DNA of 64,000 bases. Source: a virus. The stretch spans positions 32,001 to 96,000 of IMG/VR virus record IMGVR_UViG_3300022752_000025, one strand, 5' to 3'. The notes below the pieces were generated by a model. The model searched no databases and was not told the DNA's origin. It saw nothing but the letters and a program-made list of their open reading frames with translations. Position numbers and translations under genes: made by a program. Position 1 is the first letter of the stretch. Each line of letters starts with the position of its first letter. This document shows positions 1 to 41,591 of this stretch, piece by piece.

Positions 1-2
1 GC

Positions 3-323
3 TCACTCAACATTCAAGCGGGAGACTTCATCCAAGTTTCCTACATCTCCAAGTGGAGAATCACAGGTGAACATACCGAGACTGAAATCTGGTATGCTGA
101 TGCTACTGAAAATGATCACTACTCAAACCTTCCGTTCATCAAAAAGATAATGTTTTGGAACTTGTCTGGTGGATACAATCTTCTCACCAGCGTTGGACAA
201 TACTTTGACATCCAAAAAGTCGAAGCAACTCCCGAACTTCTGGAAAGAGTTGAAACTACCAAGGGAATCTCTGCTGGAATCCACGAAGCGTATAATAGCG
301 GTGGACAATATAAAGGAGACTAA
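3..323 (+). CDS. Hypothetical protein, 5'-truncated by window edge
   Basis: Frame 3 open from window start to TAA 321-323 (SLNIQAGDFIQ...SGGQYKGD*); not in ORF track because it lacks a start. Confidence 0.75.
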   Translation, partial: SLNIQAGDFIQVSYISKWRITGEHTETEIWYADATENDHYSNLPFIKKIMFWNLSGGYNLLTSVGQYFDIQKVEATPELLERVETTKGISAGIHEAYNSGGQYKGD

Positions 324-324
324 T

Positions 325-528
325 ATGGACTTAACAAATAGCGTTCAAAGACTCAAAGAAGAAATCTACTACGGAAGCGAAGCTCTCCAAAGCTTAAGTC
401 GAGCACTTCAAATTGCTAAAGACAAAAAACTAAACCGCAACTATTCAATCCCTGACCATATGTGGCCTGATATAGAAGCGGAGATTGAAGAAGAAGCAAG
501 CGAATGGGCAGTTGATTACCAAGGGTGA
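325..528 (+). CDS. Hypothetical protein (start corrected from 169)
   Basis: ATG 325 directly after upstream stop, preceded by AAGGAG. Confidence 0.75.
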   Translation: MDLTNSVQRLKEEIYYGSEALQSLSRALQIAKDKKLNRNYSIPDHMWPDIEAEIEEEASEWAVDYQG

Positions 529-836
529 AAAACTTTCTCGCCTCTTTTCGGGCGACTCTCACCAAAAAGAAGGGTTGGTGGGAGCAAACTTTTCTTTTCT
601 GGCGTGTGCTTGCTGGCTTGCGTTTTTGTGAAGAAATGATAGACTTAATAAATTACAAAACAAAAAACAAAATAAAATATACTAAAATGAAAACATTCTT
701 ACGCCGTCATATCTTGCAACTCTCAAAAATTTTCTATTCTCTCGCTGTTAAAAATGGCGAAAGAAAAAATTACAAACTCGAAAAATTTTTCTACTATCCT
801 TCTGCGTTTTTGCTTGAACTAAAAGATCTCGTATAA
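525..836 (+). CDS. Hypothetical protein (true start may be internal)
   Basis: ORF track; TAA 834-836 forms the start of repeat element 1. Confidence 0.5.
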   Translation: MKNFLASFRATLTKKKGWWEQTFLFWRVLAGLRFCEEMIDLINYKTKNKIKYTKMKTFLRRHILQLSKIFYSLAVKNGERKNYKLEKFFYYPSAFLLELKDLV

Positions 837-906
837 GTCTTTAACTATCAACGACTTACACGCGCAGGGAGGGCCCGCGCGCAAATCGTTGACTATCAAC
901 AACTTA
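834..906 (+). repeat. 73-bp double-palindrome element, copy 1
   Basis: taagtctttaactatcaacgactta + 23-bp cacgcgcagggagggcccgcgcg + caaatcgttgactatcaacaactta. Confidence 0.95.
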
Positions 907-913
907 CAAAAGC

Positions 914-941
914 TTGACAAAAATAAAAAATCTGATATCCT
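914..941 (+). promoter_or_regulatory. Sigma70-type promoter, leaderless architecture
   Basis: TTGACA-N16-TATCCT with TG extension, ATG 7 nt downstream. Confidence 0.7.
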
Positions 942-948
942 TTTTTTT

Positions 949-1311
949 ATGCAAAACAAAACAAGAATCTTCTCTGAACCTTTTGGCCCTAACCTCGCCT
1001 ATTTGATTGAGGCTGATTTCCTATCTGCTGAAAGATTTTATAATGCTATTTATAATTTCGGTGGAACGAATTACAAATTACAAGATCGTGGAAGTGGTAA
1101 AGCATTTTACTTTTATGCAGAACCAGCGAAGTTTCGCAGAGCATTGTCTCTTGCTCTCTCAAGCAATCTTGAATCTTCATTTGGTGATGGCGACTGGGAA
1201 CCTCATGGAGAAGCCCTAGCAGATCAAATCATTTCAGAAATAAAACCAGCAACTTTTGTAAGGCGTTGTCATTCAATAGAATATTCTTATAGAAAATCTT
1301 TGACAGAATAG
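949..1311 (+). CDS. Hypothetical protein, paralog of 6283..6669 (start corrected from 889)
   Basis: ERFYNAIYNFGGTNYKLQ motif shared with paralog; ATG 949 follows promoter. Confidence 0.75.
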   Translation: MQNKTRIFSEPFGPNLAYLIEADFLSAERFYNAIYNFGGTNYKLQDRGSGKAFYFYAEPAKFRRALSLALSSNLESSFGDGDWEPHGEALADQIISEIKPATFVRRCHSIEYSYRKSLTE

Positions 1312-1327
1312 TAATCTGTGATACATT
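1300..1327 (+). promoter_or_regulatory. Sigma70-type promoter, leaderless architecture
   Basis: TTGACA-N16-TACATT-N6-ATG(1334). Confidence 0.75.
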
Positions 1328-1333
1328 ACAAGT

Positions 1334-1573
1334 ATGACAAACGACATCAACTACCTCGCCTCTATAACCACAGCCGAAGCCTTTGCTGATGCGGAAGCAT
1401 TCTTCGACTACATCAACTCCGCTGATGCCATCAACGATATGCTTGATCGGATGGCTCCTACCTACGACGAGCAGGATACGGAAGTAGTGCATTTTAACAA
1501 GCCTGCTACTTTCTGCGGGATGCCTTTTATCACTTTTCGTCTTACCTGTCAGAATGGAATGGAGGTTAAATAA
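1334..1573 (+). CDS. Hypothetical protein
   Basis: ORF with own promoter. Confidence 0.75.
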   Translation: MTNDINYLASITTAEAFADAEAFFDYINSADAINDMLDRMAPTYDEQDTEVVHFNKPATFCGMPFITFRLTCQNGMEVK

Positions 1574-1574
1574 T

Positions 1575-1859
1575 ATGGCATACGACTACAAAGCCTCTCT
1601 CAAGGAGTGGATGAGCCAGCACATGCTGACTCCGCTGGATGTGCGTGACATCCTCAGCGAAATTCGTAAGGATCGCGAGGAGGGGCGCGTCCTAGAATCT
1701 TCTCAATCTAACCTCTCTGATGTAGACGAATCGATGGATGGTGACTTCGATTCTGCTATGGCCTCTGCTGGTCATGGAACCGATGAGGACTATGGTGGCG
1801 GATGCTACCAGATGGAAGACTTCGGTTGGGCTGGTGATCCAGAAATTTGTGGAGAATAA
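1575..1859 (+). CDS. Acidic phage protein with MDGDxxSAxASAGxGTDEDYG motif
   Basis: GGAGG upstream of ATG 1575; motif recalled from uncharacterised phage proteins. Confidence 0.75.
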   Translation: MAYDYKASLKEWMSQHMLTPLDVRDILSEIRKDREEGRVLESSQSNLSDVDESMDGDFDSAMASAGHGTDEDYGGGCYQMEDFGWAGDPEICGE

Positions 1860-1860
1860 T

Positions 1861-1974
1861 ATGGAAAAATATATGCTTGCAATTGCAGGGCTTGGAATTT
1901 TTTTCCTTGCTCTTGCCATATTAGAAACCCTTATCAATTTTGCTGTATGGTTTTGGAATCATAAGCGCAAGTAG
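1861..1974 (+). CDS. Small single-TM protein
   Basis: MEKYMLAIAGLGIFFLALAILETLINFAVWFWNHKRK; stop inside repeat copy 2. Confidence 0.6.
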   Translation: MEKYMLAIAGLGIFFLALAILETLINFAVWFWNHKRK

Positions 1975-2040
1975 TTAACTATCAACGACTTACGCGCGCA
2001 GGGTCCCTGCCCTCGTAAGTGCTTGATAATCAAATACTTA
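1968..2040 (+). repeat. 73-bp double-palindrome element, copy 2
   Basis: caagtagttaactatcaacgactta + 23-bp cgcgcgcagggtccctgccctcg + taagtgcttgataatcaaatactta. Confidence 0.95.
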
Positions 2041-2256
2041 CAACGATGCCCATTCTCTAAAATCTTCTCGCAATTCTTTTTCGTAACTTACAAAATCTTT
2101 TTTTGCATCAAGTGGAGGATTATCTCCATCGCTCCATGGATAAAAAGTTTCTAAATTTTCGTTTAATAATTTTTCGATATTCATTTTAAGCTCTCCTTAA
2201 TCATTACAAAAAATACAAAGGTAACAATCAATAAGAATAAAGTCATATGTTGCATC

Positions 2257-2892
2257 TTAATGTTTTTTGTAGTTAATTGCAAACTCATTTTTATGCCAAC
2301 ACGCACGGCACGAACCGCACTTGTTACCTTGTTTCGATGAGGGACAATTAAACTCTCCCTTTGTGCTTGCACCACTAACGCAGAGGCCAAGGCGTTCTGC
2401 TAATCCAACAGGTGCGGGGCCATTCATCATAAGAGCAGATAAGCGGATAGTAAGATTGAAAGGAACTTCACCGCCCTTTGCTATATACTCTGAAACGAAA
2501 GAGTATTCCCTAGTTGGCAACCAAAAAGAAATATGCGGAAGATTCTTTGCAATCTTTACAATTTTTTCAAGATGCCATACGCCTTGCAAATCTCCCGAAT
2601 CGTGCCAACGGAAGTGCGGATTGTTTGTCTTACCGATAAGATAAGTCATAGCATCCACCCAAAGATCGTGAGTAAGAGAAGCAAAACGCTTTTCCATCGC
2701 TGCTTGAACATTGGGGAAAACATAACGCCCTTTAAGAGCATAACAAAAAGCACAAATGCTTCCCGCAATACTACGCATTTTTTGTCCAATAATGCAACGC
2801 TTGGCTGGCGTGGAATAAGCATAACCTGGCATCTTCGAGGGTTTGGATAGTGTTCCAACTATCGCTTCGGCTTGTTTTTTGTTTTTGAACAT
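2257..2892 (-). CDS. Phage Gp88-like protein (Cys-rich, radical-SAM-like)
   Basis: CAFCYA, FRWHDSGD, FWLPTRE and C-terminal C..CxxCxxC motifs typical of the GP88 family. Confidence 0.8.
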   Translation of the reverse strand: MFKNKKQAEAIVGTLSKPSKMPGYAYSTPAKRCIIGQKMRSIAGSICAFCYALKGRYVFPNVQAAMEKRFASLTHDLWVDAMTYLIGKTNNPHFRWHDSGDLQGVWHLEKIVKIAKNLPHISFWLPTREYSFVSEYIAKGGEVPFNLTIRLSALMMNGPAPVGLAERLGLCVSGASTKGEFNCPSSKQGNKCGSCRACWHKNEFAINYKKH

Positions 2893-2942
2893 AAAATAAA
2901 TGTATCACTTTTTTTTCTTGTGACAAGTTTTTTTTATAGTTA

Positions 2943-3015
2943 AATCTCGTTGAGTATCAATGAGTTACAACTGCAGGGAGGTGGCTTGCCTAAGTTGTTG
3001 ATACTTAAGCGGTTA
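2943..3015 (+). repeat. 73-bp double-palindrome element, copy 3
   Basis: aatctcgttgagtatcaatgagtta + 23-bp caactgcagggaggtggcttgcc + taagttgttgatacttaagcggtta. Confidence 0.9.
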
Positions 3016-3844
3016 CAGCTTCTTCTTCTGGAATCTCTTCGGTTTCTTTTTTACCCAAAAAAGCGTCAAATCTTTTTTGTGCTTTGCTAGAAGCTGAAAT
3101 AATAAAGTTCATATCCTTTTTTAATACTTGGAGCCAACTCGAAAGATAGCTCGCAGAATTATTGAAACATTTTTCAGAATTAATCCCGCAGAAGTTAAGA
3201 CAAAGACTCGCAAAAATCTCTGCGGTCAATTCTTCTTTGCTATAATTCTGTGAACCAAATCCATTCTTCACATCGTCATTGGTTGCCTTGTGCATAGCGT
3301 GACCAATCTCATGAAATGCTGTGGAATAATACTCTTCGACGCTGTTAAAGTTTTCTTTTGGAGGAAGATCAATCTTATGTTCCTGCGGATAATAGCAAGC
3401 ACGACTGCCACCATACTTAATCTTAATGATACACTTGTTGATCAACTTTTCTGCTTCTTCTACTGGCGAAAACTCCAGTTTCTTAACTTCAGGTTGTTTC
3501 CACTTCAGTCCTTCGATATCACTTAAACCAAAGACTCTGTAGTAACGCATCATAGGAAAACTTTTGGTTTCATTATCTTTTTCTGTCTTGAGTAGTTTGT
3601 AATAAACTACCATGTGAGACTTTGCACCAGCTTTGATCTTTCCACCAAGTTCTTTGATCTGATTAAAGGTAAAGAAAAAATCATCAGAAGAAAGCATCCG
3701 AAGCAAAAATTGATTGATGCCACGATAGTTCTTTTTCGACACGCCGTTGCAGAGGTCAAAAACTTTCCAAGGTTTCTGCCAAGGGCACACGCCTTTGTTG
3801 AGAGCTTCGATGAATTTTTCTGTGATGATTTCGTTTACTTTCAT
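3005..3844 (-). CDS. ardC: ArdC-like antirestriction protein (ssDNA-binding + zincin domain)
   Basis: PWQKPW, YRGIN, YYSTAFHEIGH, YSKEELTAE, SASYLSSW motifs. Confidence 0.9.
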   Translation of the reverse strand: MKVNEIITEKFIEALNKGVCPWQKPWKVFDLCNGVSKKNYRGINQFLLRMLSSDDFFFTFNQIKELGGKIKAGAKSHMVVYYKLLKTEKDNETKSFPMMRYYRVFGLSDIEGLKWKQPEVKKLEFSPVEEAEKLINKCIIKIKYGGSRACYYPQEHKIDLPPKENFNSVEEYYSTAFHEIGHAMHKATNDDVKNGFGSQNYSKEELTAEIFASLCLNFCGINSEKCFNNSASYLSSWLQVLKKDMNFIISASSKAQKRFDAFLGKKETEEIPEEEAVTA

Positions 3845-3884
3845 AGCTTAAATATATCAGCTTTTTGTTTTTTGTCTACAAAAG

Positions 3885-3957
3885 AATCTCATTCACCATC
3901 AACGACTTACAGCGCAAGGGAGGTCACCTTCATAAGTCATTAATAATCAATGAAATA
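3885..3957 (+). repeat. 73-bp double-palindrome element, copy 4
   Basis: aatctcattcaccatcaacgactta + 23-bp cagcgcaagggaggtcaccttca + taagtcattaataatcaatgaaata. Confidence 0.9.
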
Positions 3958-4012
3958 AAATTGTTGACTAAAAATAAAAATATGATAATCTATAGAAAGA
4001 AAGGAGGCAAAT

Positions 4013-4147
4013 ATGATGGATATATTCGATGACCAAAAAACATTAAACATCTGGGCAAAAGAAATGTGGGACGATCAAGCTATGGAACGAGCCTTAGAAA
4101 CTCAAGCAGAGCTTGATGCTGACCATGCTCGTGATATGGGAGAGTAA
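4013..4147 (+). CDS. Small acidic hypothetical protein (44 aa), alone between repeat copies 4 and 5
   Basis: TTGACT..GATAAT promoter, AAGGAGG SD, MMDIFDDQKTLNIWAKEMWDDQ...GE*. Confidence 0.75.
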   Translation: MMDIFDDQKTLNIWAKEMWDDQAMERALETQAELDADHARDMGE

Positions 4148-4220
4148 TAACTCTCTCATTATCAACAACTTACAAGGGCAGGGAGCTCGCCGCTGTAAAT
4201 CTTTGATACTTAATTACTTA
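4148..4220 (+). repeat. 73-bp double-palindrome element, copy 5
   Basis: taactctctcattatcaacaactta + 23-bp caagggcagggagctcgccgctg + taaatctttgatacttaattactta. Confidence 0.9.
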
Positions 4221-4237
4221 TAACTATTATAAATATC

Positions 4238-4309
4238 TAGGGCTAAACGGATTCGAACCGATATACCCTCATTGAAAGCGAGGAGTCCTAACCATTAGAC
4301 GATAGCCCC
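4238..4309 (-). tRNA. tRNA-Glu(TTC)
   Basis: Cloverleaf GGGGCTA..TAGCCCT, anticodon loop CT-TTC-AA, GTTCGAATC T-loop. Confidence 0.9.
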
Positions 4310-4393
4310 AATATGTAGTATTATTATATTTGTTATTTATCTATTTTGCAAATATTATTTGCTATTTAGTGTAATCTAATTTAGAATTTAGAG

Positions 4394-4576
4394 ATGAACT
4401 CAAAAGTAAGTGGTATATTAGAAAATTCTGCATTGTATAAAGAATTTCTTCGTGAACGAGAAGAGATATTAAAACACAAATGGATTGAAAGTGAAAAAGC
4501 TGGGCGTGATGTAGGATTTGAATGGGCTCTTCTTGATTGGAATTTCAATCACAGAAATAACTGGCGTAATAAATAA
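4394..4576 (+). CDS. DUF4032-like small protein
   Basis: EREEILKHKWIESEKAGRDVGFEWALLDW motif; GTGTAAT motif upstream. Confidence 0.7.
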   Translation: MNSKVSGILENSALYKEFLREREEILKHKWIESEKAGRDVGFEWALLDWNFNHRNNWRNK

Positions 4577-4577
4577 A

Positions 4578-4829
4578 TTAAACTTTTCTCTCAACAATAG
4601 ATATTCTATTAAGATAATATTTTAGAGACTCATAAGGAAATCTAGTCGTTTGAGAAGCTATTTCCTTAATCATCCTATCTATAATATTGGGTCTAACAAA
4701 GATCCTTGATTTATTCTGAACAAAGATAGTTAGCGGAAAATTATCAAGATTATATCCAAATCTTTGTTTTCTTCCACGAATATTGCAATAAAAAGTAACT
4801 CTTAAATTCTTATATGAAACATCTTTCAT
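4578..4829 (-). CDS. Hypothetical protein
   Basis: TTGACA-N16-TATATT-N6-ATG at 4836-4863. Confidence 0.75.
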   Translation of the reverse strand: MKDVSYKNLRVTFYCNIRGRKQRFGYNLDNFPLTIFVQNKSRIFVRPNIIDRMIKEIASQTTRFPYESLKYYLNRISIVERKV

Positions 4830-4870
4830 TTATGTAATATACTATTAATTGAAATTATGTCAATAAAATT

Positions 4871-5002
4871 TAGTTCTTCCGCTCTCTTTATTCTAGAACT
4901 AAAGAGAATATATTCCCACCTTTAATTGCCTCAGACTCTGGGCATTGGGGCTTCAATGGCTCTTATGGAGGAAGTCATCCTCACTCATTGCGGAAAGAAC
5001 TA
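4871..5002. ncRNA. Putative structured ncRNA, multi-branch junction (probably minus strand)
   Basis: Ends pair (tagttcttccgc / gcggaaagaacta) and enclose three further hairpins; intergenic. Confidence 0.55.
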
Positions 5003-5026
5003 TCTAAATCTTATCAGAGTTTAATT

Positions 5027-5260
5027 TTATTGCAAGACTTTTTCTAAACTATCTGATTTTGGCCAAAGAGAACAAATGACTTTATCTAAAAGCATTTCAT
5101 CGTGTATCTCTTTCCAGTTTAGGTCATAGATCCCCTCGTCAATAACTGCACCAGTACTATCAGTAGTACAAGTATAATTAAGTTTTTTTCCTTTATATTT
5201 GAATGTATGGAAAGTTCGAGTTTGAATATCAATTTCTTCTTTTACTTTGGTTACTTTCAT
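5027..5260 (-). CDS. Hypothetical protein
   Basis: TTGACA-N16-TATACT-N6-ATG at 5267-5294. Confidence 0.75.
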   Translation of the reverse strand: MKVTKVKEEIDIQTRTFHTFKYKGKKLNYTCTTDSTGAVIDEGIYDLNWKEIHDEMLLDKVICSLWPKSDSLEKVLQ

Positions 5261-5296
5261 ATTATCAGTATACCTTTGATTGTTTTAATGTCAAAT

Positions 5297-5328
5297 AAAA
5301 AAGGCGAGGATTTTACTCCTCGCCCTTT
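5297..5328 (-). terminator. Intrinsic terminator
   Basis: ggcgagga/tcctcgcc hairpin followed by U-tract on minus strand. Confidence 0.75.
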
Positions 5329-5348
5329 CTATGATTGTCTTTCTGTTC

Positions 5349-5609
5349 TTAAACTGGCGAAAGACCACCAGAGATCCGATCATAACGGAACTGACGATGT
5401 CCGAATCCGTCACGACCAGAAAAGCACCAAGAAATGAAAAGTTTGTTTCCAGCCTTGGAAATGTAATGAGTGGTAGGAACGCCAACGATGTAAGTATAAG
5501 CCTCGGTTCCATTGTAAGGTTTATAGTTGATGATATACCGCTGTCCCAGCACGAACCAGAACAGACCCTTAATCATCTCCCACAGGGTGATGTTGTTTTG
5601 TTTCTTCAT
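5349..5609 (-). CDS. Hypothetical protein
   Basis: ORF between repeat copy 6 and terminator; C-terminal RQFRYDRI resembles a WYL-like motif. Confidence 0.7.
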   Translation of the reverse strand: MKKQNNITLWEMIKGLFWFVLGQRYIINYKPYNGTEAYTYIVGVPTTHYISKAGNKLFISWCFSGRDGFGHRQFRYDRISGGLSPV

Positions 5610-5649
5610 TTAATAATCATACCATAACTTCATTTTTCTGCAAGAAATA

Positions 5650-5722
5650 AATCTCATTGATTATCAACGACTTACGCGGCAAAAGTCCCTGCCGTTTTAA
5701 CTACTTAATAATTAAAGACTTA
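5650..5722 (+). repeat. 73-bp double-palindrome element, copy 6
   Basis: aatctcattgattatcaacgactta + 23-bp cgcggcaaaagtccctgccgttt + taactacttaataattaaagactta. Confidence 0.9.
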
Positions 5723-6124
5723 CAGAGGTTAATTTATTCTTCTGTTTCTTTCCAATTTGGATGCGCTTTGGCCCACTTTACAAAAACAACTTCAAGATTT
5801 TCCAAGTATTTATCTATCTGTGCAATAAGTTTAGGATCTTCACCTTGCAGAACTCTTTTTTCTAAGATTTTGCTGATCCTATTTTCATGTTTCATATATA
5901 CTATTTTACAGTAGCGTTATAAATATTTCAATATTTTATTTTATCCTGTAAGATTTAAAGAAAAAATTATTTTAGATGTGTAATTACTATTTTAATTAAT
6001 TGTTCTAATGCGCCCCAAAAAATAGAAAAGCCAATAGCAGAAGCAATAATGAATGGGGCGTTTCTATCAAAAAAATTTCTCACATAAAAACTTTACAGCG
6101 AGAAAAAACTTTTGGGAAAATTCT

Positions 6125-6198
6125 CGCTTTCAGCAGGGATCGAACCTGCAACCTACGGATTAGAAATCCGTTGCTCTATCCAATTGAGCTATGAAAGC
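6125..6198 (-). tRNA. tRNA-Arg(TCT)
   Basis: GCTTTCA..TGAAAGC acceptor, loop TT-TCT-AA. Confidence 0.92.
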
Positions 6199-6200
6199 GA

Positions 6201-6276
6201 TGGTCGCCTAGGTCGGACTCGAACCGACACTTGAACGATTTTAAGTCGTTTGCCTCTGCCATTGGGCTACTAGGCG
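6201..6276 (-). tRNA. tRNA-Leu(TAA), short variable region, CCA encoded
   Basis: CGCCTAG..CTAGGCG-ACCA, loop CT-TAA-AA, 5-nt variable loop. Confidence 0.88.
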
Positions 6277-6282
6277 GATCTT

Positions 6283-6669
6283 TTAGCTATCGTTGTCTAA
6301 CTTTTCAGCAGAGACTTGACCGATAGAATAAAAATCTTGAACTTGTGCAGTTTTAACAAAACTTTCAACAGGAATATTTTTAATCGTATTCGAGACACGA
6401 TTCAGAACAACCTGTTTCAGACCACCTTTAGCACCACGAAACTTCTTTCCAAGTTTGTCACTCATACTATTCATAACATACTTAAACATCACACGCTCTA
6501 ATTTTTCAAGAGTGATCCAAAAATATGCAAAGGATTCACTCATCCATTGAAGTTCGCCATTTGTTCCACCCCAATTATAAATTCGATTGTGAAACTGCTC
6601 AATTTCATCTTTCTTTCCTTTGATACCAATAACCCAATGTGCTCCAAGATTTTGTTTAACGAGTTGCAT
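6283..6669 (-). CDS. Hypothetical protein, paralog of 949..1311
   Basis: EQFHNRIYNWGGTNGELQ; AAGGAG upstream of MQLVKQ start. Confidence 0.75.
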   Translation of the reverse strand: MQLVKQNLGAHWVIGIKGKKDEIEQFHNRIYNWGGTNGELQWMSESFAYFWITLEKLERVMFKYVMNSMSDKLGKKFRGAKGGLKQVVLNRVSNTIKNIPVESFVKTAQVQDFYSIGQVSAEKLDNDS

Positions 6670-6862
6670 TTTGTTTTTCTCCTTTTTGTTTGAAATATAA
6701 ATCAATATCTTCTTGTGTCAAGTCTGTATGTTTAGCGTATGAGTTCAGCATCCAATGTAGTGTTGGAGCTACAAGCCAGCTATACTTAATAAGGTCATAG
6801 GTTTCTTTCATTGTTTTTAGTTTAACAGGATTTGTTTTTTTGTCAAGGGTTTTCTTAATTTT

Positions 6863-6934
6863 TGGATCGCGTAGGACTCGAACCTACAACCAATTGGTTA
6901 AAAGCCAACTGCTCTACCATTGAGCTAGCGATCC
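6863..6934 (-). tRNA. tRNA-Lys(TTT)
   Basis: GGATCGC..GCGATCC, loop CT-TTT-AA. Confidence 0.92.
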
Positions 6935-6941
6935 GAAATTT

Positions 6942-7014
6942 TGGGCCTGATAGGATTCGAACCTATAACCAAAGCATTATGAGTGCTCTGCTCTAACCGT
7001 TGAGCTACAAGCCC
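6942..7014 (-). tRNA. tRNA(CAT), probably Ile2 (lysidine type) rather than Met
   Basis: GGGCTTG..CAGGCCC-A, loop CT-CAT-AA; Ile-like body, paired 1:72. Confidence 0.85.
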
Positions 7015-7020
7015 ATCTTT

Positions 7021-7227
7021 TTAGGAAGCTACTACCTTCGCTGGAAAACTAGAAGGCTTTGGAACTTGCACAAACTCGACAGCAAAAGCCTCGGCAATGT
7101 TCTGCAACTCTTTCAGAGAGCAAGTCTCTTTTGGAGTGCACATACGAATTGAAGTGTTTAAGATGACGGCTCGATCTTGACCGAACACATTCATCACATA
7201 GAATGGAACTGATTGGTTGTTTGTCAT
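7021..7227 (-). CDS. Hypothetical protein
   Basis: Start at MTNNQ just below a TTGACT..TATATT promoter. Confidence 0.7.
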   Translation of the reverse strand: MTNNQSVPFYVMNVFGQDRAVILNTSIRMCTPKETCSLKELQNIAEAFAVEFVQVPKPSSFPAKVVAS

Positions 7228-7267
7228 AGGTTTAATATACAACAGTTTGATAAATAGTCAACAAAAA

Positions 7268-7292
7268 TAATTGGTTGAATATCAATAATTTA
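7268..7292. repeat. Solitary 25-bp palindromic box related to the 73-bp element
   Basis: taattggttgaatatcaataattta. Confidence 0.55.
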
Positions 7293-7305
7293 CATATAAT
7301 AAGAT

Positions 7306-7399
7306 TGGTACGAGGGGAAGGATTCGAACCTTCATTTTGCCCAAATCTAGAGCGACCAGAGTATAAGTCTGGGGTCTTAACCAGTTAGACGACCCTCGC
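7306..7399 (-). tRNA. tRNA-Ile(TAT) with long variable arm, CCA encoded
   Basis: GCGAGGG..CCCTCGT-ACCA, loop CT-TAT-AC, 22-nt variable region, GTTCGAATC. Confidence 0.88.
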
Positions 7400-7431
7400 A
7401 TTACCAGCCGTAGCTAGTATCGGCCTCCGCT

Positions 7432-7611
7432 TTAGGCTTTCTTTTCGGATTTCTCCGAGCCAATCTTTTTAATGATAACTTTCGTGCCGTCAGGCCAAGT
7501 GCGGATAATCTTACGCCAATGCTCTGCTTCATGCTCTGCTTCGGCAAGATCAGTATGCATATCCTCGCTGACACGAATACCATCACGCAAAACGATATAC
7601 TTTACATTCAT
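7432..7611 (-). CDS. Hypothetical protein (59 aa, below ORF-track cutoff)
   Basis: MNVKYIVLRDGIRVSEDMH...WPDGTKVII...KKA*, ATGA overlap with upstream gene. Confidence 0.7.
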   Translation of the reverse strand: MNVKYIVLRDGIRVSEDMHTDLAEAEHEAEHWRKIIRTWPDGTKVIIKKIGSEKSEKKA

Positions 7612-7838
7612 TCTTCTACCTCTGCGATAATTTCATTGTCAAATAGTGAGCCACCATCTACCTTGTCGCAGATTACGATGTCATTACTGCCATCATCACC
7701 AGCATACACGGCACGAAGTTTTTTTACTTGACTATACTCTTTTTTCGTCCATTGACTCTCTGGAACGCCGAGGACTTGCAGAGCCTCAACTCTCTCTGGA
7801 GGAATTGCCTCACCACTTACTGCACAATGATAGGTCAT
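7608..7838 (-). CDS. Degenerate DksA/TraR zinc-finger-like protein
   Basis: HCAVSGEAIPPERVEAL resembles CxxCGExIPxxRLxA. Confidence 0.55.
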   Translation of the reverse strand: MTYHCAVSGEAIPPERVEALQVLGVPESQWTKKEYSQVKKLRAVYAGDDGSNDIVICDKVDGGSLFDNEIIAEVEE

Positions 7839-7845
7839 AGTTTTA

Positions 7846-8232
7846 CTATGCTACAATGTTTTGATTTTCTGTCAAGAGATTTTTGCGTGGGCGACCACGG
7901 CCACGCTTTTCTCCGCTGGGCAGAATTGCTGTTGCATTATAGTTTGTTAATTTCTCTTGTAGTTCGCCGAAACGCTTGTTTGCATCTTCTATAGTCGTGC
8001 AAGTAAAAGCCCAATCGCCCCATTGACTATCGCTAGGATACATTTCAGCGGGAGGCATTTTTACGCCAGCAATCTCATACCCATTATGACGCTTAATTGC
8101 TACAACTTCATAGTGATAGTTTTCGCTCTCACCATCATCAAGTTGTTTTTTGTAAATAGCGATGTCGCCATCACGCTTTACTTGTTGAAGTTTGAAACCT
8201 TTACTTGTAAATGATTCTTCAAGAATTTTCAA
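7846..8232 (-). CDS. Phage protein with C-terminal AT-hook
   Basis: KRGRGRPRK; YPSDSQWGxWAFT motif. Confidence 0.75.
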   Translation of the reverse strand: MKILEESFTSKGFKLQQVKRDGDIAIYKKQLDDGESENYHYEVVAIKRHNGYEIAGVKMPPAEMYPSDSQWGDWAFTCTTIEDANKRFGELQEKLTNYNATAILPSGEKRGRGRPRKNLLTENQNIVA

Positions 8233-8399
8233 TTTTTACTCCTTCTGGAAGCCAGCCTTTTGGATCAAGGTTTTCTCCAATATAGCCAACTTGGGACTCT
8301 TGCTTGGTTTTGGGGTCAATAGCATAAAGAGCATAGCCACCTTCAGCCAGCTTCTTTACTTTAGTAATGTTCATATAAAGATTATAGTATAGTTTTAGA

Positions 8400-8738
8400 T
8401 TAATTCAAGACAAAAATTTCTCTACCAATCACCCCAGCCCATTTTGCTTTATATACTGGTTTTTTAGTATCGGCATAAACAAAAGATTTATACTTGTAAG
8501 GATTATATGTCACAAGCCTCTCTCCGTGAATAGGCCATCCATCGTCTCTATGTCCGCATACAAAAGCGTGAACATTTTTTCTTTTTTCTTTTAAGACCCT
8601 ATCCCTACCAGCTTGGCTTACTCTAAATTCAACATCTTTAAGAAAGAACTCTGAACTATGCTCTAATACTTTTCCTTTTAGCATAATAGAAAGACAATGC
8701 TTATGCAGATTATAATAAACTTTATGTTTTGCTCTCAC
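8400..8738 (-). CDS. Conserved hypothetical phage protein
   Basis: VYYNLHK...FRVSQAGRDRVLKEKRKNVHAFV...YNPYK motifs. Confidence 0.8.
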   Translation of the reverse strand: MRAKHKVYYNLHKHCLSIMLKGKVLEHSSEFFLKDVEFRVSQAGRDRVLKEKRKNVHAFVCGHRDDGWPIHGERLVTYNPYKYKSFVYADTKKPVYKAKWAGVIGREIFVLN

Positions 8739-8779
8739 TAACTTAACTATAAGATAAATTCTATAAATGTCAAGCTTTA

Positions 8780-8852
8780 TAAGCAGTTGATAGTCAATGA
8801 CTTACAGCGGCGAGGTCCCCCCGCGCGCAAGTCCTTGATAGACAACGACTTA
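8780..8852 (+). repeat. 73-bp double-palindrome element, copy 7
   Basis: taagcagttgatagtcaatgactta + 23-bp cagcggcgaggtccccccgcgcg + caagtccttgatagacaacgactta. Confidence 0.95.
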
Positions 8853-8871
8853 TAATTAGTCAAATTTAGAC

Positions 8872-8901
8872 AAAAAGATGCGAGGGGTTTTGCCCCTCGC
8901 A
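8872..8901 (-). terminator. Intrinsic terminator after DUF932 gene
   Basis: tgcgagggg-tttt-gcccctcgca hairpin plus U-tract on minus strand. Confidence 0.75.
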
Positions 8902-8924
8902 CTTGTTAAGGTTTACGTTTTAGT

Positions 8925-9782
8925 TTAGGCGATCAGTTTCAAGAGGTCTTCGTCACGGGTTTGACCGCTGAAGACTTTGAGCAGATCACGATTCACACGC
9001 TCGCTGTACTCATAACGCTCTTGCGAGACATTGCGAGTCAGGAACTGAGTTGAAGCGTTGTAGAGGTTGTAGAGGTTGCGAGGCTTGTCCTCATCATACT
9101 GAGGATTCAGCCACACCGCCTCGATCCCTTCACGCACCTTGCCAGAGATAATGTCTTTCTCTTCCAGCTTGGTGAGCAGTTTCAGACCGTTCTCATTCGA
9201 GAGATCCTTCAGGGCAAGCCTGTTGAAAATCTCGGCAGACTGGTCAACGTTTGACATAGCCTTGAGAAGCGCATCATTAACGAAATCCAGATTGACAGCA
9301 AGCGTATGCCGCTTAGTCATGCTGAACTCCTTAGTGAGCGAGGTCATGCCATTCTCGCAAACGAGACGAAGGAAGCCAAGGGTGAGAGACACACGGCAAG
9401 AGCGATCATAACTGTTGTTAACAGTCAGACGCAAGCCGAGAATGTCACCTTTCTTACGGTCTCCCACGGGCTTGAGTTTGGTCTCAAACTTGGGGAAATC
9501 ATAAGATGCATAGAAGCGAGCCCCATCACGCACAACGATCTTCTTCGAGTTGAACTCGGAGAGCCTATCATGCTTGACGAGATTGGTTTCCACCATCTCA
9601 ACGAGGTCTGCATTCTTCACCACACCATACTGCTCGGTGCAAACTCCGAGTGTAATGGGTTCGGCGGTGTCACGGCGCACCATGCCGAAGTATCCTGTCC
9701 TCTTGCCGTCAGTTGTGAGGAGTGGCTCTTGGTGTACGTCAAAATCGTATACACTTTGAGCGGGTTTTGTTTTTCTAGCCAT
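8925..9782 (-). CDS. DUF932/DUF945-family protein
   Basis: NSYDRS, RLVCENG, LYNLYNASTQ motifs. Confidence 0.8.
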   Translation of the reverse strand: MARKTKPAQSVYDFDVHQEPLLTTDGKRTGYFGMVRRDTAEPITLGVCTEQYGVVKNADLVEMVETNLVKHDRLSEFNSKKIVVRDGARFYASYDFPKFETKLKPVGDRKKGDILGLRLTVNNSYDRSCRVSLTLGFLRLVCENGMTSLTKEFSMTKRHTLAVNLDFVNDALLKAMSNVDQSAEIFNRLALKDLSNENGLKLLTKLEEKDIISGKVREGIEAVWLNPQYDEDKPRNLYNLYNASTQFLTRNVSQERYEYSERVNRDLLKVFSGQTRDEDLLKLIA

Positions 9783-9888
9783 AAGTTAATCATACTATAC
9801 TTTTATAATCTGACAAGAAAAAAATAAATGTCATAAGATACTAAATATCATAGGTTTAAGACTTTTTGCTAAAATAATTTTATATCTG

Positions 9889-9961
9889 TAAACCCTTGAT
9901 TATCAACGACTTGCGCGCGCGGGGGGCCCGCCGCCCTAACTATATAATAATTAAGTACTTA
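9889..9961 (+). repeat. 73-bp double-palindrome element, copy 8
   Basis: taaacccttgattatcaacgacttg + 23-bp cgcgcgcggggggcccgccgccc + taactatataataattaagtactta. Confidence 0.9.
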
Positions 9962-10411
9962 TGTCAACTTAAATTTAATATTACTTCTTCTGTACTCTCT
10001 TACTTTTCTCATAGCATATAAACTAGCATCAACTTCACATAATTTAGCTTTAGTTCCCATGTTATATTTTCTTATCTTTTTAATACCATGATAGAACTTA
10101 CCTTTCTTATATTGATAAATATGTCTTAATTCATGAGCAATTAATTCAATTAAACTTTCTTCCCAAGTATATGTATTAACTTCTAAATATCCTCTAAATC
10201 CACCACTCTTATATGGTTTAATATATTTATTATATGCTGGGACTCCTACATGAAGTCTCATACTGCCCCATGCTCTGCCGTGCCAACCTAATTTAGTATT
10301 ACCAATATCTATTTTTCTGATGTCTTTAAGGAACACCCCTTGAGGCATACACCATTTAATAATTTCTTTTAATTTATCAGAACAATATGAGGTTGTATTA
10401 ATGAGCTTCAT
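9959..10411 (-). CDS. Zincin-like (HExxH) metalloprotein (start corrected from 10453)
   Basis: LIAHELRHIYQ plus downstream E(VDA); leaderless promoter above MKLINT. Confidence 0.7.
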   Translation of the reverse strand: MKLINTTSYCSDKLKEIIKWCMPQGVFLKDIRKIDIGNTKLGWHGRAWGSMRLHVGVPAYNKYIKPYKSGGFRGYLEVNTYTWEESLIELIAHELRHIYQYKKGKFYHGIKKIRKYNMGTKAKLCEVDASLYAMRKVREYRRSNIKFKLT

Positions 10412-10437
10412 AAACTCAAATATACAATAAATTAAAA

Positions 10438-10638
10438 TTAAGTCAAGGCACAAAGTTCTGCTTCTAGTCTTTTCCTTTCACTAGCTAAATCTTTTAATTT
10501 TTTTGCATTATCTTTAACTTCACCATACCCTTTTTCAACAGAGTCAATAACTTTCTGAATATTATCATTAATAATACTTAACTGATCTTCATTTATCTTT
10601 TTGAGCTTATCTCGAAGCTCTTGATATGAATATGTCAT
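10438..10638 (-). CDS. Hypothetical coiled-coil protein
   Basis: TTGACA-N16-TATCAT-N6-ATG. Confidence 0.75.
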   Translation of the reverse strand: MTYSYQELRDKLKKINEDQLSIINDNIQKVIDSVEKGYGEVKDNAKKLKDLASERKRLEAELCALT

Positions 10639-10668
10639 AGGTTTATGATATATTAAATTAATTAGATG

Positions 10669-10884
10669 TCAAGCGCAGGCTTTATTGACTAGATACATAG
10701 CAAATGCTTCTTCTAAAATCTCGCCCTGCTCGCCAAGTATTCTGTTGTGATTCTTATCAAAGATATTAGTTTTGATATTAAAACCAGCATTATTTAGCGA
10801 AAGCTCACAATAGTAATCTTCGCCATTATGGTTCCAAGGTACTGTTCTATACGATACAGGAGTGTACATTTGTTTTTTGGTCAT
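10669..10884 (-). CDS. Hypothetical protein
   Basis: TTGACA-N16-TATTAT-N6-ATG. Confidence 0.75.
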   Translation of the reverse strand: MTKKQMYTPVSYRTVPWNHNGEDYYCELSLNNAGFNIKTNIFDKNHNRILGEQGEILEEAFAMYLVNKACA

Positions 10885-10909
10885 AAGATAATAATATATT
10901 AAATTAATT

Positions 10910-11110
10910 TTATGTCAAACCAAAAGGCACAGAATTAGTTTGTCTTACAATAACAGGATGTCCTTCATCTAATATATCTATCCTATAATCAGTAAGATAC
11001 ATTGTAGCTTTATAGAACTCACTATCTATTTGAACAGTTATATCACTATTTAGTTGAGCTTCATTTAGCTTTTGGAGTTTATTTAATAAATCTCTGTATG
11101 TAATTGTCAT
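10910..11110 (-). CDS. Hypothetical protein
   Basis: TTGACT-N16-TATATT-N6-ATG; N-terminus similar to 10438..10638. Confidence 0.75.
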   Translation of the reverse strand: MTITYRDLLNKLQKLNEAQLNSDITVQIDSEFYKATMYLTDYRIDILDEGHPVIVRQTNSVPFGLT

Positions 11111-11144
11111 GTATTTAATATAATCTAAATTATTATTTAGTCAA

Positions 11145-11684
11145 TTAATAAAGATCTATTGGTGGTCCTACTAAATCTAGTATTACTGTAACATTTTCTC
11201 GTCCAAACATAGTTAATCCGCTCCCAGCAATCCAAGAATCATCTCCCACTCTAGCATGAATCGTCAAGAGTAAATTATTATCATAATATTGAAAGGTGGC
11301 CGTCTCGAAAATGGTCTTAGGACCATAACAATAAACCGTTTGAATTGGAGTGCTTGCGAATGTATAACCGTAAATATTAGTAATATTAGAAGGTATTATT
11401 ATATTAGTAAGATTAGCACATCCAATAAATGCGCTGGTGCCAATACTGCTTGCGCTATTTCCTATTAAAACTTTATCAATTGAGGTAAAAATTTGAAAAT
11501 AGGCTGGTATATTTCCCTCTAATGTTTGAATTAAATTCGAGTCTTGAAAAGTAGAGGTATAAGATGTGGTTGGAATATATTGGTATGGTGATTGTGATGC
11601 TCCGCCAATTATTTTTTTCTTTGGGACGTATATATTAACACCCCTTTTAAAAGATCCTAATTGTTTTGTTCCCTTCACTATCAT
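11145..11684 (-). CDS. BspA-type leucine-rich-repeat protein
   Basis: SIGTSAFIGCANLTNIIIPSNITNIYGYTF repeats; GTGTAAT-N7-ATG. Confidence 0.75.
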   Translation of the reverse strand: MIVKGTKQLGSFKRGVNIYVPKKKIIGGASQSPYQYIPTTSYTSTFQDSNLIQTLEGNIPAYFQIFTSIDKVLIGNSASSIGTSAFIGCANLTNIIIPSNITNIYGYTFASTPIQTVYCYGPKTIFETATFQYYDNNLLLTIHARVGDDSWIAGSGLTMFGRENVTVILDLVGPPIDLY

Positions 11685-11842
11685 AAAAAAGATTACACTT
11701 TATATAATATAAATTCTTATTTAGTCAATTTCTTTTTCTTAGAAGGTTTATTCCACGTAGGTTTGCTCCATATACTATGAATCATTTTAAGGTATCGCCT
11801 TCTTTCTGCCCAAGTCATTTCATAGTTTTGGAATATCATATA

Positions 11843-12043
11843 TTATTTAATTCTAGTATAAGTAGCTTTTATTTTATTAAGCCACGCTTTGCACTCTTTT
11901 AATTTAGGAAAATATAATTCTTCTGCTGGTTGGCATCCATCATATTTAGCCATATATACTGGCTTATCAACATATTCTTCCTCATAACCACCGCCAAATA
12001 AATAAGGATTTTTATTTATTACTTTTTGAATGGTATAGTGCAT
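11843..12043 (-). CDS. Hypothetical protein
   Basis: ORF track, abutting neighbour. Confidence 0.65.
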   Translation of the reverse strand: MHYTIQKVINKNPYLFGGGYEEEYVDKPVYMAKYDGCQPAEELYFPKLKECKAWLNKIKATYTRIK

Positions 12044-21905: not shown

Positions 21906-22385
21906 TTAGCCTTTATTATAAATCTTTACCTTCACTATTTTAGGATTATTATTGGCAAATTTCAAAGCATCTTTTTTATTCAAAAAGAAAATATCAATAA
22001 CAGGGTATTTACCTCCGCTTGCCTTTTTATTGATAACTGCTGTTCCAGTATCGTGAGCCACTCTAAAACCAAGATTAGGAATATAAATTCTACTAAAGTA
22101 TGGTATGATGCGAGGGTCTACTGCTACTGAAACATTAGGTTTAAGTGTCACGCCAGTAGAACTTTGGCGTTTTTGGCTCCAACCATCGGTATCACCACCC
22201 TTTGCCCAATAAGCAGTTATACGAACTTTAATTTCTTTTTTGGGAATCATAGACTTCACAAATTTTTCCACCATAGCGTCTTTAATAGTATTAAAGTTAT
22301 CTTTATTAGATGGTGCAGTAATTTCTGGTTTAAATAAAAACCAGATACCACACAAAAACACGGATAAACGGCATAGTATTTGCAT
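21906..22385 (-). CDS. 3D-domain protein (lytic transglycosylase-like)
   Basis: ITAY, VAVDPRIIP, AHDTG, IDIF: three conserved Asp; N-terminal signal. Confidence 0.85.
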   Translation of the reverse strand: MQILCRLSVFLCGIWFLFKPEITAPSNKDNFNTIKDAMVEKFVKSMIPKKEIKVRITAYWAKGGDTDGWSQKRQSSTGVTLKPNVSVAVDPRIIPYFSRIYIPNLGFRVAHDTGTAVINKKASGGKYPVIDIFFLNKKDALKFANNNPKIVKVKIYNKG

Positions 22386-22751
22386 AACTTGTCCTCTTTG
22401 AATTAAATTTAATTTAAATTGGGGAAAATGTCAAGCCAGATTAGCTTCTTCTGGCGACCACTAGACTCCTGTTATAATTTTAGACTTCATAACAAATAGA
22501 TTACACCCATAACTCAGTATTTCTACTGAATTAAGGGTGGAATCGTATGATAGTTATTTCGTTACTAAGACCGAATTGCGGAGCTTGCTAGTCAATCTAC
22601 GCTTATCAAATGATCTCCAATGACGAGCGTGCTGATTAACCTTATCAAGAACCTTTGTTTCGCTAATGGTAAATGTGCCATCAGTATTATCGGTCATCTT
22701 AACAAAATATGTTTTTGGTCTAATTGCCATAATGTTAATATTAGTTGATAT

Positions 22752-41473: not shown

Positions 41474-41494
41474 AATTTAAAATTATTAACTATA

Positions 41495-41582
41495 TGGAAC
41501 GAGTAGGATTCGAACCTACGGATGATATTAAACCATCGGAAGTTTAGTAAACTTCTGCTTTAGACCACTCAGCCATCGTTCC
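41495..41582 (-). tRNA. tRNA-Ser(ACT)
   Basis: GGAACGA..TCGTTCC-A, GGCTGAGTGGTCTAAAGC D-arm, loop TT-ACT-AA, long V-arm. Confidence 0.88.
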
Positions 41583-41591
41583 AAAATAACT

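Follow-up and report, generated by a model that had tools for sequence, protein, structure and literature searches.

The 64,000-nt window analyzed here comprises bases 32001–96000 of the 132,273-bp linear virus record IMGVR_UViG_3300022752_000025 (our own record, labeled G000; estimated to be 86% complete), which comes from an AT-rich, uncultured phage of freshwater or lake origin. Near the start of the window, cassettes with genes such as GP88, ArdC and DUF932 are separated by copies of a 73-bp element made up of a 25-bp palindromic box, a 23-bp GC-rich core and a second 25-bp box. The cluster of elements lies in the middle of the record, as it does in the complete relative G001 (171.9 kb, 100% complete), and its GC content (0.33–0.42 over record 30.8–42.0 kb) stands above the 0.24–0.35 of the rest of the window. 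An earlier note on this DNA had placed ArdC, DUF932 and a 44-aa open reading frame (ORF) in such cassettes and had given the cassettes promoters of their own; both statements are correct, and the cassettes lie on both strands. The strand flips repeatedly inside the cluster, as that note had it, and the genes downstream (window ~10–56 kb) are almost all on the minus strand.

All eight copies of the element that had been listed are present, each with exactly 25 + 23 + 25 bp, and the stop codons said to lie in or touch the boxes are found there as well (Table 1). The box consensus of the earlier note, allowing up to three mismatches, matched five boxes against 0.00 expected from 100 shuffles. A position-weight scan of the whole record returned exactly ten sites above 30 bits with the next best at about -39, so the family is sharply defined and confined. 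Accordingly, the claim that there are eight elements in the first 10 kb and none beyond holds for the window, but two more copies lie just before it, at record 30811 and 30971 (window -1189 and -1029). These are 160 bp apart and face each other, the second being reversed, and they bring the cluster to ten copies in 11.2 kb (record 30.8–42.0 kb). That all copies face the same way is a weak statement: with a refined matrix seven of the eight window copies score higher on the plus strand and the copy at 8780 is ambiguous (83.6 vs. 89.0). Only the central GGG(A) gives the otherwise nearly symmetric element a direction. With a single-box matrix we also found four lone boxes without a GC core, at record 29315, 31272, 31839 and 39268, all in or beside the cluster, while the remaining 119 kb held no other site above 10 bits.

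Table 1. Elements, regulatory sites and cassette genes in the window.
Feature	Window position	Strand	Description
Element 1	834–906		Box 834–858, core 859–881, box 882–906; first three bases (834–836) are the stop codon of the upstream plus-strand gene
Element 2	1968–2040		Between convergent gene ends; stop codon 1972–1974 inside the left box
Element 3	2943–3015		GP88 promoter on the left; ArdC stop codon 3005–3007 in the right box
Element 4	3885–3957		Divergent promoters on both sides; each -35 starts 6 nt from the box edge
Element 5	4148–4220		Convergent, 44-aa gene end (stop codon 4145–4147 touches the box) and tRNA-Glu 3′ end; no promoter
Element 6	5650–5722		Minus-strand promoter starts 6 nt from the left box
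Element 7	8780–8852		Direction ambiguous; 6 nt between the left box and the start of the L5_gp82-like gene's promoter
Element 8	9889–9961		Last of the cluster; stop codon 9959–9961 of a 164-aa minus-strand gene in the right box
Single box without core	7268–7292		Record 39268; 6 nt upstream of a minus-strand TTGACT -35 hexamer
Leaderless-type promoter	914–941	+	TTGACA, 16 nt, TATCCT, ATG at 949; 7 nt after element 1
ArdC promoter	3851–3878	-	TAGACA, 16 nt, TATATT; -35 is 6 nt from the left box of element 4
Intrinsic terminator, canonical	8878–8902	-	10-bp GC-rich stem and T-run after DUF932; beside element 7, not inside it
GP88	2257–2892	-	Pfam PF17338; cassette gene
ArdC	3005–3844	-	ArdcN and zincin-like metallopeptidase; PHROG anti-restriction protein
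44-aa gene	4013–4147	+	190-bp cassette, present or absent as a unit in relatives
Phage_L5_gp82 (Pfam) gene	8400–8738	-	Occurs in the arrays of the 58-bp lineage too
DUF932	8925–9782	-	Cassette family most widely common to array lineages

On each side of an element there is either a gene end or a promoter, and all four combinations occur. The promoters are of a leaderless, sigma-70 type (TTGACA, 16 nt, TAnnnT, 6–7 nt, ATG). Where a box is followed by such a promoter the distance between box and -35 hexamer takes one of two values. It is 6 nt (7 nt once) for the right box of the element at 834, both boxes at 3885, the left boxes at 5650 and 8780 and three lone boxes, and 16 nt for the left box at 2943, the right box at record 30971 and one lone box, so that each of the four lone boxes has a -35 hexamer 6 or 16 nt downstream. 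In the 14 regions compared between our own record and its relatives we counted 190 distinct element ends, of which 40 have a promoter-like site no more than 60 nt away, and among these 40 the gap is 6 nt in 19 cases, 7 nt in three and 16 nt in eight, against about one expected at 5–7 nt and 0.7 at 15–17 nt. Leaderless promoters with a box number six of 14 inside record 29.0–42.1 kb and none of 45 outside it. The step of exactly one helical turn suggests a face-of-the-helix coupling, with the box center near -54 or -64. By strict criteria the record as a whole has 59 leaderless-type promoters, concentrated at record 30–60 kb.

The consensus is best preserved in boxes on the side of a gene end, where the stop codon is often the outer TAA of the box itself. 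The elements do not have the GC-rich stem followed by a T-run of an intrinsic terminator, and none of 17 terminator-like sites in the own-record stretch L038:2500–16500 (L-numbers denote the sequence stretches compared; L038:3884 is record 30884) overlaps an element, the only strong one of the 17 being that after DUF932 (Table 1). An RNA-library contig from a public run spans a diverged allele of element 1, although DNA carry-over is possible.

Since each box is palindromic and the two boxes are reverse complements of each other, an element can be drawn either as three hairpins or as one long hairpin. Neither fold shows covariation among the copies. In the three-hairpin fold 67.6% of cells are paired vs. 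67.9% in shuffles, with 383 of 500 shuffles reaching the observed value, and in the one-long-hairpin fold 66.2% are paired vs. 67.1%, with 497 of 500 reaching it. Mutual information is highest between columns that, with few exceptions, are adjacent or nearly so, and no hairpin partners are among these top pairs. Selection for a hairpin in the boxes, whether in RNA or in DNA, was rejected on these grounds, and it is thus the consensus that is palindromic. The two half-sites fit TAAGTCGTTGA independently of each other, which is what one would expect if the box were read by a dimeric DNA-binding protein. Invariant in the box are TAA, some 11 positions to either side of the 3-bp center, and TT and TCAA, at about ±4.5. 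This arrangement would be compatible with recognition helices lying in two major grooves 9 bp apart and with minor-groove contacts on the flanks. We read the boxes, from their sequence, as predicted sites for a dimeric sequence-specific DNA-binding protein. The earlier proposal of paired binding sites for such a protein thereby gains support, from the palindromic consensus and the fixed promoter phasing as well as from the lack of covariation.

In the GC-rich core GCAGGG is conserved at positions 31–36, and a central GGG is followed by CCC or GG. Its fold barely beats that of shuffled sequences (mean z -0.77), and its two halves are complementary at 0.435 vs. 0.456 for random halves; a hairpin in the core of this lineage, which has boxes 48 bp apart from center to center, is not supported, and cruciform extrusion is therefore unlikely. 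Taken as a single strand, the whole 73-mer folds with a mean of -18.9 kcal/mol (z -2.4 vs. mononucleotide shuffles). No Rfam family matched the element; the only matches were to six tRNAs and sub-threshold antisense ones on them.

Beyond this record, 29 stretches in 25 IMG/VR contigs of related lake phages match an IUPAC pattern built from the window copies, with 1–10 copies per stretch in matrix scans. Three relatives were also scanned whole with a sequence-only covariance model built from 124 distinct copies, and all matches fell in one cluster in each: 124.8–136.4 kb in G001, 43.0–54.1 kb in G002 (94.9 kb) and 106.1–112.0 kb in G003 (112.8 kb). The 124 copies align free of gaps, with T9, A17, A18, T23, T24, A50, T57, A65 and T72 invariant, although this fit is partly built in because the copies were gathered with a 73-bp matrix that fixes the spacing. 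The single-box scan avoids this bias. It shows that the claim of lengths that never drift is right for our own record, where every pair is 48 bp from center to center, but not for relatives. Among 136 distinct adjacent box pairs from our own record and L003–L031, 122 are 48 bp apart, and the others are at 47 bp (eight, six of them in L029), 49 bp (one), 51 bp (four, all in L014) and 58 bp (one, weak). A search pattern that kept the two inner half-boxes and left the gap between them free recovered the same box from 20 more contigs, whose cores differ, at spacings of 58 bp (54 pairs), 50/51, 57, 59/60, 42 and 34–38 bp. The box is the widely conserved part, and the length of the core is near-uniform within a genome and differs between lineages. 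From these alignments we conclude that core length is probably under selection within a lineage, because unrelated copies are only about 45% identical in the core and yet have the same length.

The lineage with 58-bp spacing (L041–L060, for example L047:235–7470) has a GC content of about 41% and carries the same 25-bp box around a 33-nt core. In this core GACCCC, a tetraloop and GGGGTC form a perfect hairpin, with TTTTG after it on the minus (gene) strand, all 17 ORFs of the L047 array are on the minus strand, and this core looks like a real intrinsic terminator. The arrays carry GP88, L5_gp82, SprT-like and DUF932 genes. A 243-aa PhoH-like protein is encoded beside them and has a homologue at record 22038–22667.

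The element appears to be a phage element and not a host repeat. In a prokaryote collection of 185,579 species (one genome per species) two stretches matched and only one is real: it holds two copies and comes from a metagenome-assembled genome (MAG), on a contig of 1049 bp. The other, from Mycoplasmopsis, had no matrix support. The same MAG has one further box on a 1528-bp contig. Boxes are not enriched in this MAG and 30 relatives, where one of 31 genomes had a box match and one of 31 a control match. A host repeat or the site of a host regulator was rejected on this evidence. The two tiny contigs (L036 and L039) were binned in a 1.4-Mb small-genome MAG; they may point to the host or may have been misbinned. 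We also considered whether contig ends pile up in the cluster through hypervariability or because of genome termini, as nine of the 25 contigs have an element no more than 1.5 kb from an end, and this signal was dropped because random fragmentation gives a similar value for contigs that were selected for carrying an element (estimate 2c/(l+c), ~0.4). Literature searches, which did not cover supplements, found no published description of the element.

Related phages differ from our own at the elements, by whole cassettes. A backbone common to the 14 regions runs from an 87-bp mini-cassette through one to three small-gene cassettes, GP88, ArdC and the 190-bp cassette of the 44-aa gene to a small-gene cassette, a tRNA-rich cassette ending in an L5_gp82-like gene and DUF932. 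The 190-bp cassette is missing in two regions, ArdC together with the 190-bp cassette in one, and the mini-cassette and its neighbor swap order between regions; no inverted cassette was seen among the 14. The lineages of L005/L021 and of L022 have elements around largely unrelated genes and share with our own record only DUF932 and, in L022, the L5_gp82-like gene as well. Many families of 120-nt flanks have several partners across an element, up to five, and identity to relatives varies from 73% to 94% between neighboring cassettes, which is a mosaic pattern. The earlier proposal of cassette shuffling is supported to the extent that cassettes are exchanged at the elements; the outcome that had been named beforehand as speaking against recombination, an identical gene order in relatives, did not occur. 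The mini-cassette itself (L038:3884–3970, record 30884–30970) lies between facing elements just before the window. No ORF is present in it, and a ~20-nt sequence (GATCTTAGACYAAAACCTGA) occurs there twice as a direct repeat. Relatives have kept the mini-cassette, at a position that shifts relative to the neighboring cassette; it might represent a binding site or encode a small RNA.

The elements at changed junctions are hybrids with breakpoints inside the 73-mer. At L009:11724 the left box comes from the ArdC-side element, and the right core and box are those of the element after the 190-bp cassette in L015. Similarly, L015:5491 equals our own copy at record 30811 over box 1 (25/25) and L027:1923 over positions 37–73. 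Half-elements are thus inherited together with the cassette on their own side, and this can be followed along the element in seven segments (Table 2). Pairs in which only the left flank is homologous have the identity of homologous elements through the left half of the core and that of the background in the right half, pairs with only the right flank homologous are the mirror image, and the switch falls at positions 36–38 of 73. For 15 junction types with identifiable donors, the best breakpoint lies in or overlaps the core in 13 and overlaps positions 30–40 in 11, the two outliers being at 12 and at 0–3. When our own elements are compared in 45 pairs, the longest exact run falls in box 1 for 36 pairs and in the core for four, so the point of exchange is not where homology is best. 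Variant contigs from public runs also join the left half of one element to the right half of another with the 23-nt core kept, for example X13 (L038 10678, 17 nt, 9194–9229, 10809) and X2 (7002, 11 nt, 9194–9229, 10809); these Logan contigs from four runs agree weakly, as likeness is 88% and the joints are often from relatives.

Table 2. Identity between pairs of elements along seven segments, by homology of the flanks.
Homologous flank	Pairs	Box 1 outer	Box 1 inner	Left core	Center	Right core	Box 2 inner	Box 2 outer
Left only	119	.81	.85	.69	.60	.50	.66	.68
Right only	143	.63	.76	.53	.78	.72	.79	.82
Both	166	.88	.88	.74	.69	.71	.84	.85
Neither	10,354	.62	.73	.46	.28	.45	.68	.65

Profile searches found no tyrosine recombinase (Phage_integrase, PF00589), serine recombinase (Resolvase, PF00239) or Y1_Tnp (PF01797; HUH) match in G000 or G001, with controls detected in 14 of 14 genomes for the tyrosine recombinase search. 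The remark that no recombinase is visible in the window can therefore be extended to the whole record (86% complete) and to the complete relative. A RecA/UvsX-like ORF of 382 aa is present both in G000 (record 115567–116286, plus strand; at 83567–84286 in window numbering, past the end of the window) and in G001. The families found among the scanned proteins of cassettes and flanks are ArdC, GP88, DUF932, L5_gp82, DUF3846 and a cell-wall hydrolase. Only DUF932 and L5_gp82-like genes are cassette families common to the 48-bp and the 58-bp lineages, and neither has a PDB relative by sequence. As a candidate factor, DUF932 was modeled with AlphaFold from eight sequences, and the model (predicted local distance difference test score, pLDDT, 59.8) was too poor to interpret; Foldseek returned nothing at E ≤ 0.001.

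The record has several traits of T4-like phages, namely rIIA, a clamp loader and the RecA/UvsX-like gene, together with a DNA polymerase (PHROG DNA-polymerase families), a DnaB-like helicase, ribonucleotide reductase and a large terminase. Most of the large presumed structural ORFs that were scanned had no PHROG match. At the nucleotide level, a megablast of window 1–12000 against 50,697 phage records gave only tRNA-Arg matches, in nine records, so that tRNAs apart no cultured phage matches. Eleven tRNA genes were called in the window, two of them unusual for phage tRNAs in length or anticodon: tRNA-Ile(TAT) at 7306–7399 (94 nt) and a tRNA-Ser at 41494–41583, called with anticodon ACT (90 nt).

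Among known systems the closest appear to be the PeSLs (promoter-early stem-loops) of T4-type phages, of which the elements here may be a symmetric, fixed-geometry variant that is predicted to be read by a protein. PeSLs are motifs of plastic regions in which a G-run/C-run stem-loop lies beside an early promoter, with chimeric motifs at the junctions of indels (Arbiol et al. 2010, PMC2839356; Comeau et al. 2014, PMC4122927). The first of these describes crossovers scattered from the stem-loop to the ATG, with one mapped crossover in the loop, and five different positions of the stem-loop relative to the promoter (PMC2839356). PeSLs and the elements here are alike in being intergenic repeats that occur only in plastic regions with many small accessory genes, and both have a G-run and then a C-run near a sigma-70-type early promoter and an upstream stop codon. 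In both cases the motifs mark the limits of indels and replacements between relatives and are chimeric at the junctions. The T4-like traits of our phage are a further likeness. However, PeSLs are one-sided composites of promoter and terminator, while the element here consists of two 25-bp palindromes at a fixed 48 bp and is symmetric. In PeSLs the promoter belongs to the repeat, whereas here it lies outside the 73-mer and is optional (40 of 190 ends), a core hairpin is not supported in our own lineage and exchange is focused on the dyad center.

The other systems resemble the element in part, and each of integron, repetitive extragenic palindrome (REP)/bacterial interspersed mosaic element (BIME), terminator and resolvase site differs from it in a defining feature that was tested. 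The earlier note had pointed to tyrosine-recombinase sites and integron cassettes. Cassette arrays split by imperfect double inverted repeats, a stop codon in or beside the site and precise units are common to integrons and to this cluster, and a circular cassette with one complete site would be a natural model. As a statement of membership the analogy was not supported. No IntI-type recombinase was found in G000 or G001, the box has a 3-bp center and, unlike the promoterless cassettes of one orientation in integrons, the cassettes here have promoters of their own and lie on both strands. Moreover, attC sites are conserved as a folded single-strand structure and are variable in length and sequence, whereas this site is conserved in sequence and length, not in fold, and shows no covariation. 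REP/BIME sequences are likewise paired, inverted, intergenic palindromic units with a short linker. REP elements, however, occur all over host chromosomes, with a Y1 transposase acting on them, while the element here occupies one 11-kb phage region, Y1_Tnp has no match in G000 or G001 and the prokaryote collection gave one 1049-bp contig. For a site of the res or hix type served by a serine recombinase, no resolvase or invertase gene (PF00239) was found in G000 or G001. The stoperators of cluster A mycobacteriophages such as L5 are also many copies of one protein site at gene ends and stop codons in the early region, and some of the cassette genes here belong to L5 families (gp82, GP88). Stoperators are short, asymmetric, oriented with transcription and spread genome-wide; by contrast, the boxes here are 25-bp palindromes, paired and regionally confined.

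The explanation we favor, with our own confidence evenly divided, is that the element is the joint between cassettes in a PeSL-like shuffling device, with a box for a dimeric protein and a GC core as the exchange point. Each 73-bp joint consists of two 36-bp half-elements around one central base, and each half-element, a 25-bp box with about 11 nt of the GC core, belongs to the cassette on its own side. A dimeric, sequence-specific protein would bind the box. At the head of a cassette the box ends 6 or 16 bp upstream of the -35 of a leaderless sigma-70-type promoter and at the tail it overlaps or abuts the stop codon, and the bound protein may regulate or insulate transcription. Cassettes would be gained, lost and re-ordered by joining half-elements at the dyad center. 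We infer that the bound protein could direct exchange to the center together with a general recombination system (RecA/UvsX-like), with no classical site-specific recombinase involved. The result would be modular shuffling of early accessory genes, including ArdC, DUF932, GP88, L5_gp82-like genes and tRNAs.

Several observations weigh against this explanation. Eight of the 14 leaderless promoters inside the region have no box and the elements at 1968 and 4148 have no promoter on either side, so that a box is neither necessary for promoters here nor always beside one. The phasing at 6 and 16 nt could partly reflect common descent of a module of box plus promoter, and the element ends counted for it are not phylogenetically independent. 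Core length varies by lineage (47, 48, 51 and 58 bp from center to center) and is mixed in L029, and this speaks against a single rigid complex that reads the two boxes together. Because orthologous copies repeat, the numbers of pairs used for the central switch are not independent either. The search for the binding protein did not find it: HTH_3 and HU/IHF-type (Bac_DNA_binding) families are absent in G000 and G001, ParB_N is absent in G000 and no DNA-binding family was found in the scanned cassette and flank proteins. Finally, a switch specific to the center is what a dedicated recombinase would be expected to produce; general recombination predicts crossovers in box 1.

That last point leads to an alternative which we regard as improbable, namely that the elements are sites of a dedicated site-specific cassette recombination, a phage analogue of the integron. 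An unrecognized recombinase would bind the boxes and exchange strands at the dyad center, circular cassettes with one complete element would integrate into resident elements and the association with promoters would be incidental. The switch at 36–38 of 73, away from the longest identity (box 1 in 36 of 45 pairs, core in four), and the co-inheritance of half-elements with their own cassette are in its favor, as are the exact core length in 122 of 136 pairs despite a core identity of ~0.45 between unrelated copies and the changes of order without inversion in the 14 regions. The cores at the two ends of a cassette are also complementary at 0.515 vs. 0.456 for random halves (p 0.0016, the samples not being independent). 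However, the complete relative has no Phage_integrase, Resolvase or Y1_Tnp match any more than our own record, and the boxes are 23 bp apart, while the crossover regions in the core sites of known recombinases are 2–8 bp. The coreless single boxes at promoters are unexplained by a pure recombination site, and about one quarter of the right-flank-only signal suggests that some exchanges fall left of the center. Among the public-run contigs no circular form was seen. A bolder form, doubtful to the same degree, is that large lake phages have a non-integron cassette-exchange system in which a box-binding protein of no recognized recombinase family breaks and rejoins DNA exactly at the dyad center, and cassettes of promoter and gene (anti-restriction genes, tRNAs, ORFans) move between co-infecting phages as precise units. 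If so, core length (47, 48, 51 or 58 bp) would be a lineage-specific compatibility key.

Somewhat less probable again is that the element is purely transcriptional punctuation, an insulator made of an operator pair and a GC attenuator that separates neighboring units of promoter and gene, with shuffling that follows passively from ordinary recombination in intergenic DNA and is sharpened by selection for intact elements. Boxes phased to promoters fit this view, as do the terminator-like core of the 58-bp lineage with its minus-strand L047 array and the fact that most cassettes have no other terminator (17 terminator-like sites, one strong). On the other hand, the core of the 48-bp lineage has no U-tract and neither its fold nor the complementarity of its halves supports an attenuator hairpin, DUF932 has its own canonical terminator beside element 7, and selection for intact elements leaves the avoidance of the longest identical stretch unexplained. 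We consider it very unlikely that the cassettes are selfish miniature inverted-repeat elements, that is, small transposons with 36-bp terminal inverted repeats that insert into the center of an element. Inverted half-elements do bound the cassettes, the ends of the 87-bp mini-cassette are inverted repeats even in the variable core and the complementarity of cassette ends is slightly above random, although this excess is small and the samples are non-independent. Against transposons of this kind, no transposase was found among the families tested (Y1_Tnp only), and the element occurs nowhere else in 132 kb and is not scattered in bacterial genomes, with one real hit in 185,579 species. A signal at the RNA level, in which boxes and core would fold in the transcript as hairpins for processing (RNase III-type) or termination, seems the least credible of all. 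The 73-mer is intergenic and folds well as a single strand, but neither fold shows covariation, mismatches occur at the rate of independent half-sites, there is no Rfam family and elements lie between convergent and divergent genes alike.

To our knowledge, PeSLs are the only cis-element described for the rapid turnover of accessory and anti-defence genes in large lytic phages, and they are loosely defined. The joint described here is sharply defined, as its palindrome is conserved across several phage lineages, its core length is lineage-specific and exchange appears to take place at the dyad center. It surrounds recognizable anti-restriction and plasmid-type establishment genes. The box could be used as bait for the binding protein, the element as a finder of accessory-gene islands in uncultured phages and the center-to-center junction as a target in long-read viromes. 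If a dedicated enzyme exists, it would define a cassette recombination system of a new kind, with potential as a tool.

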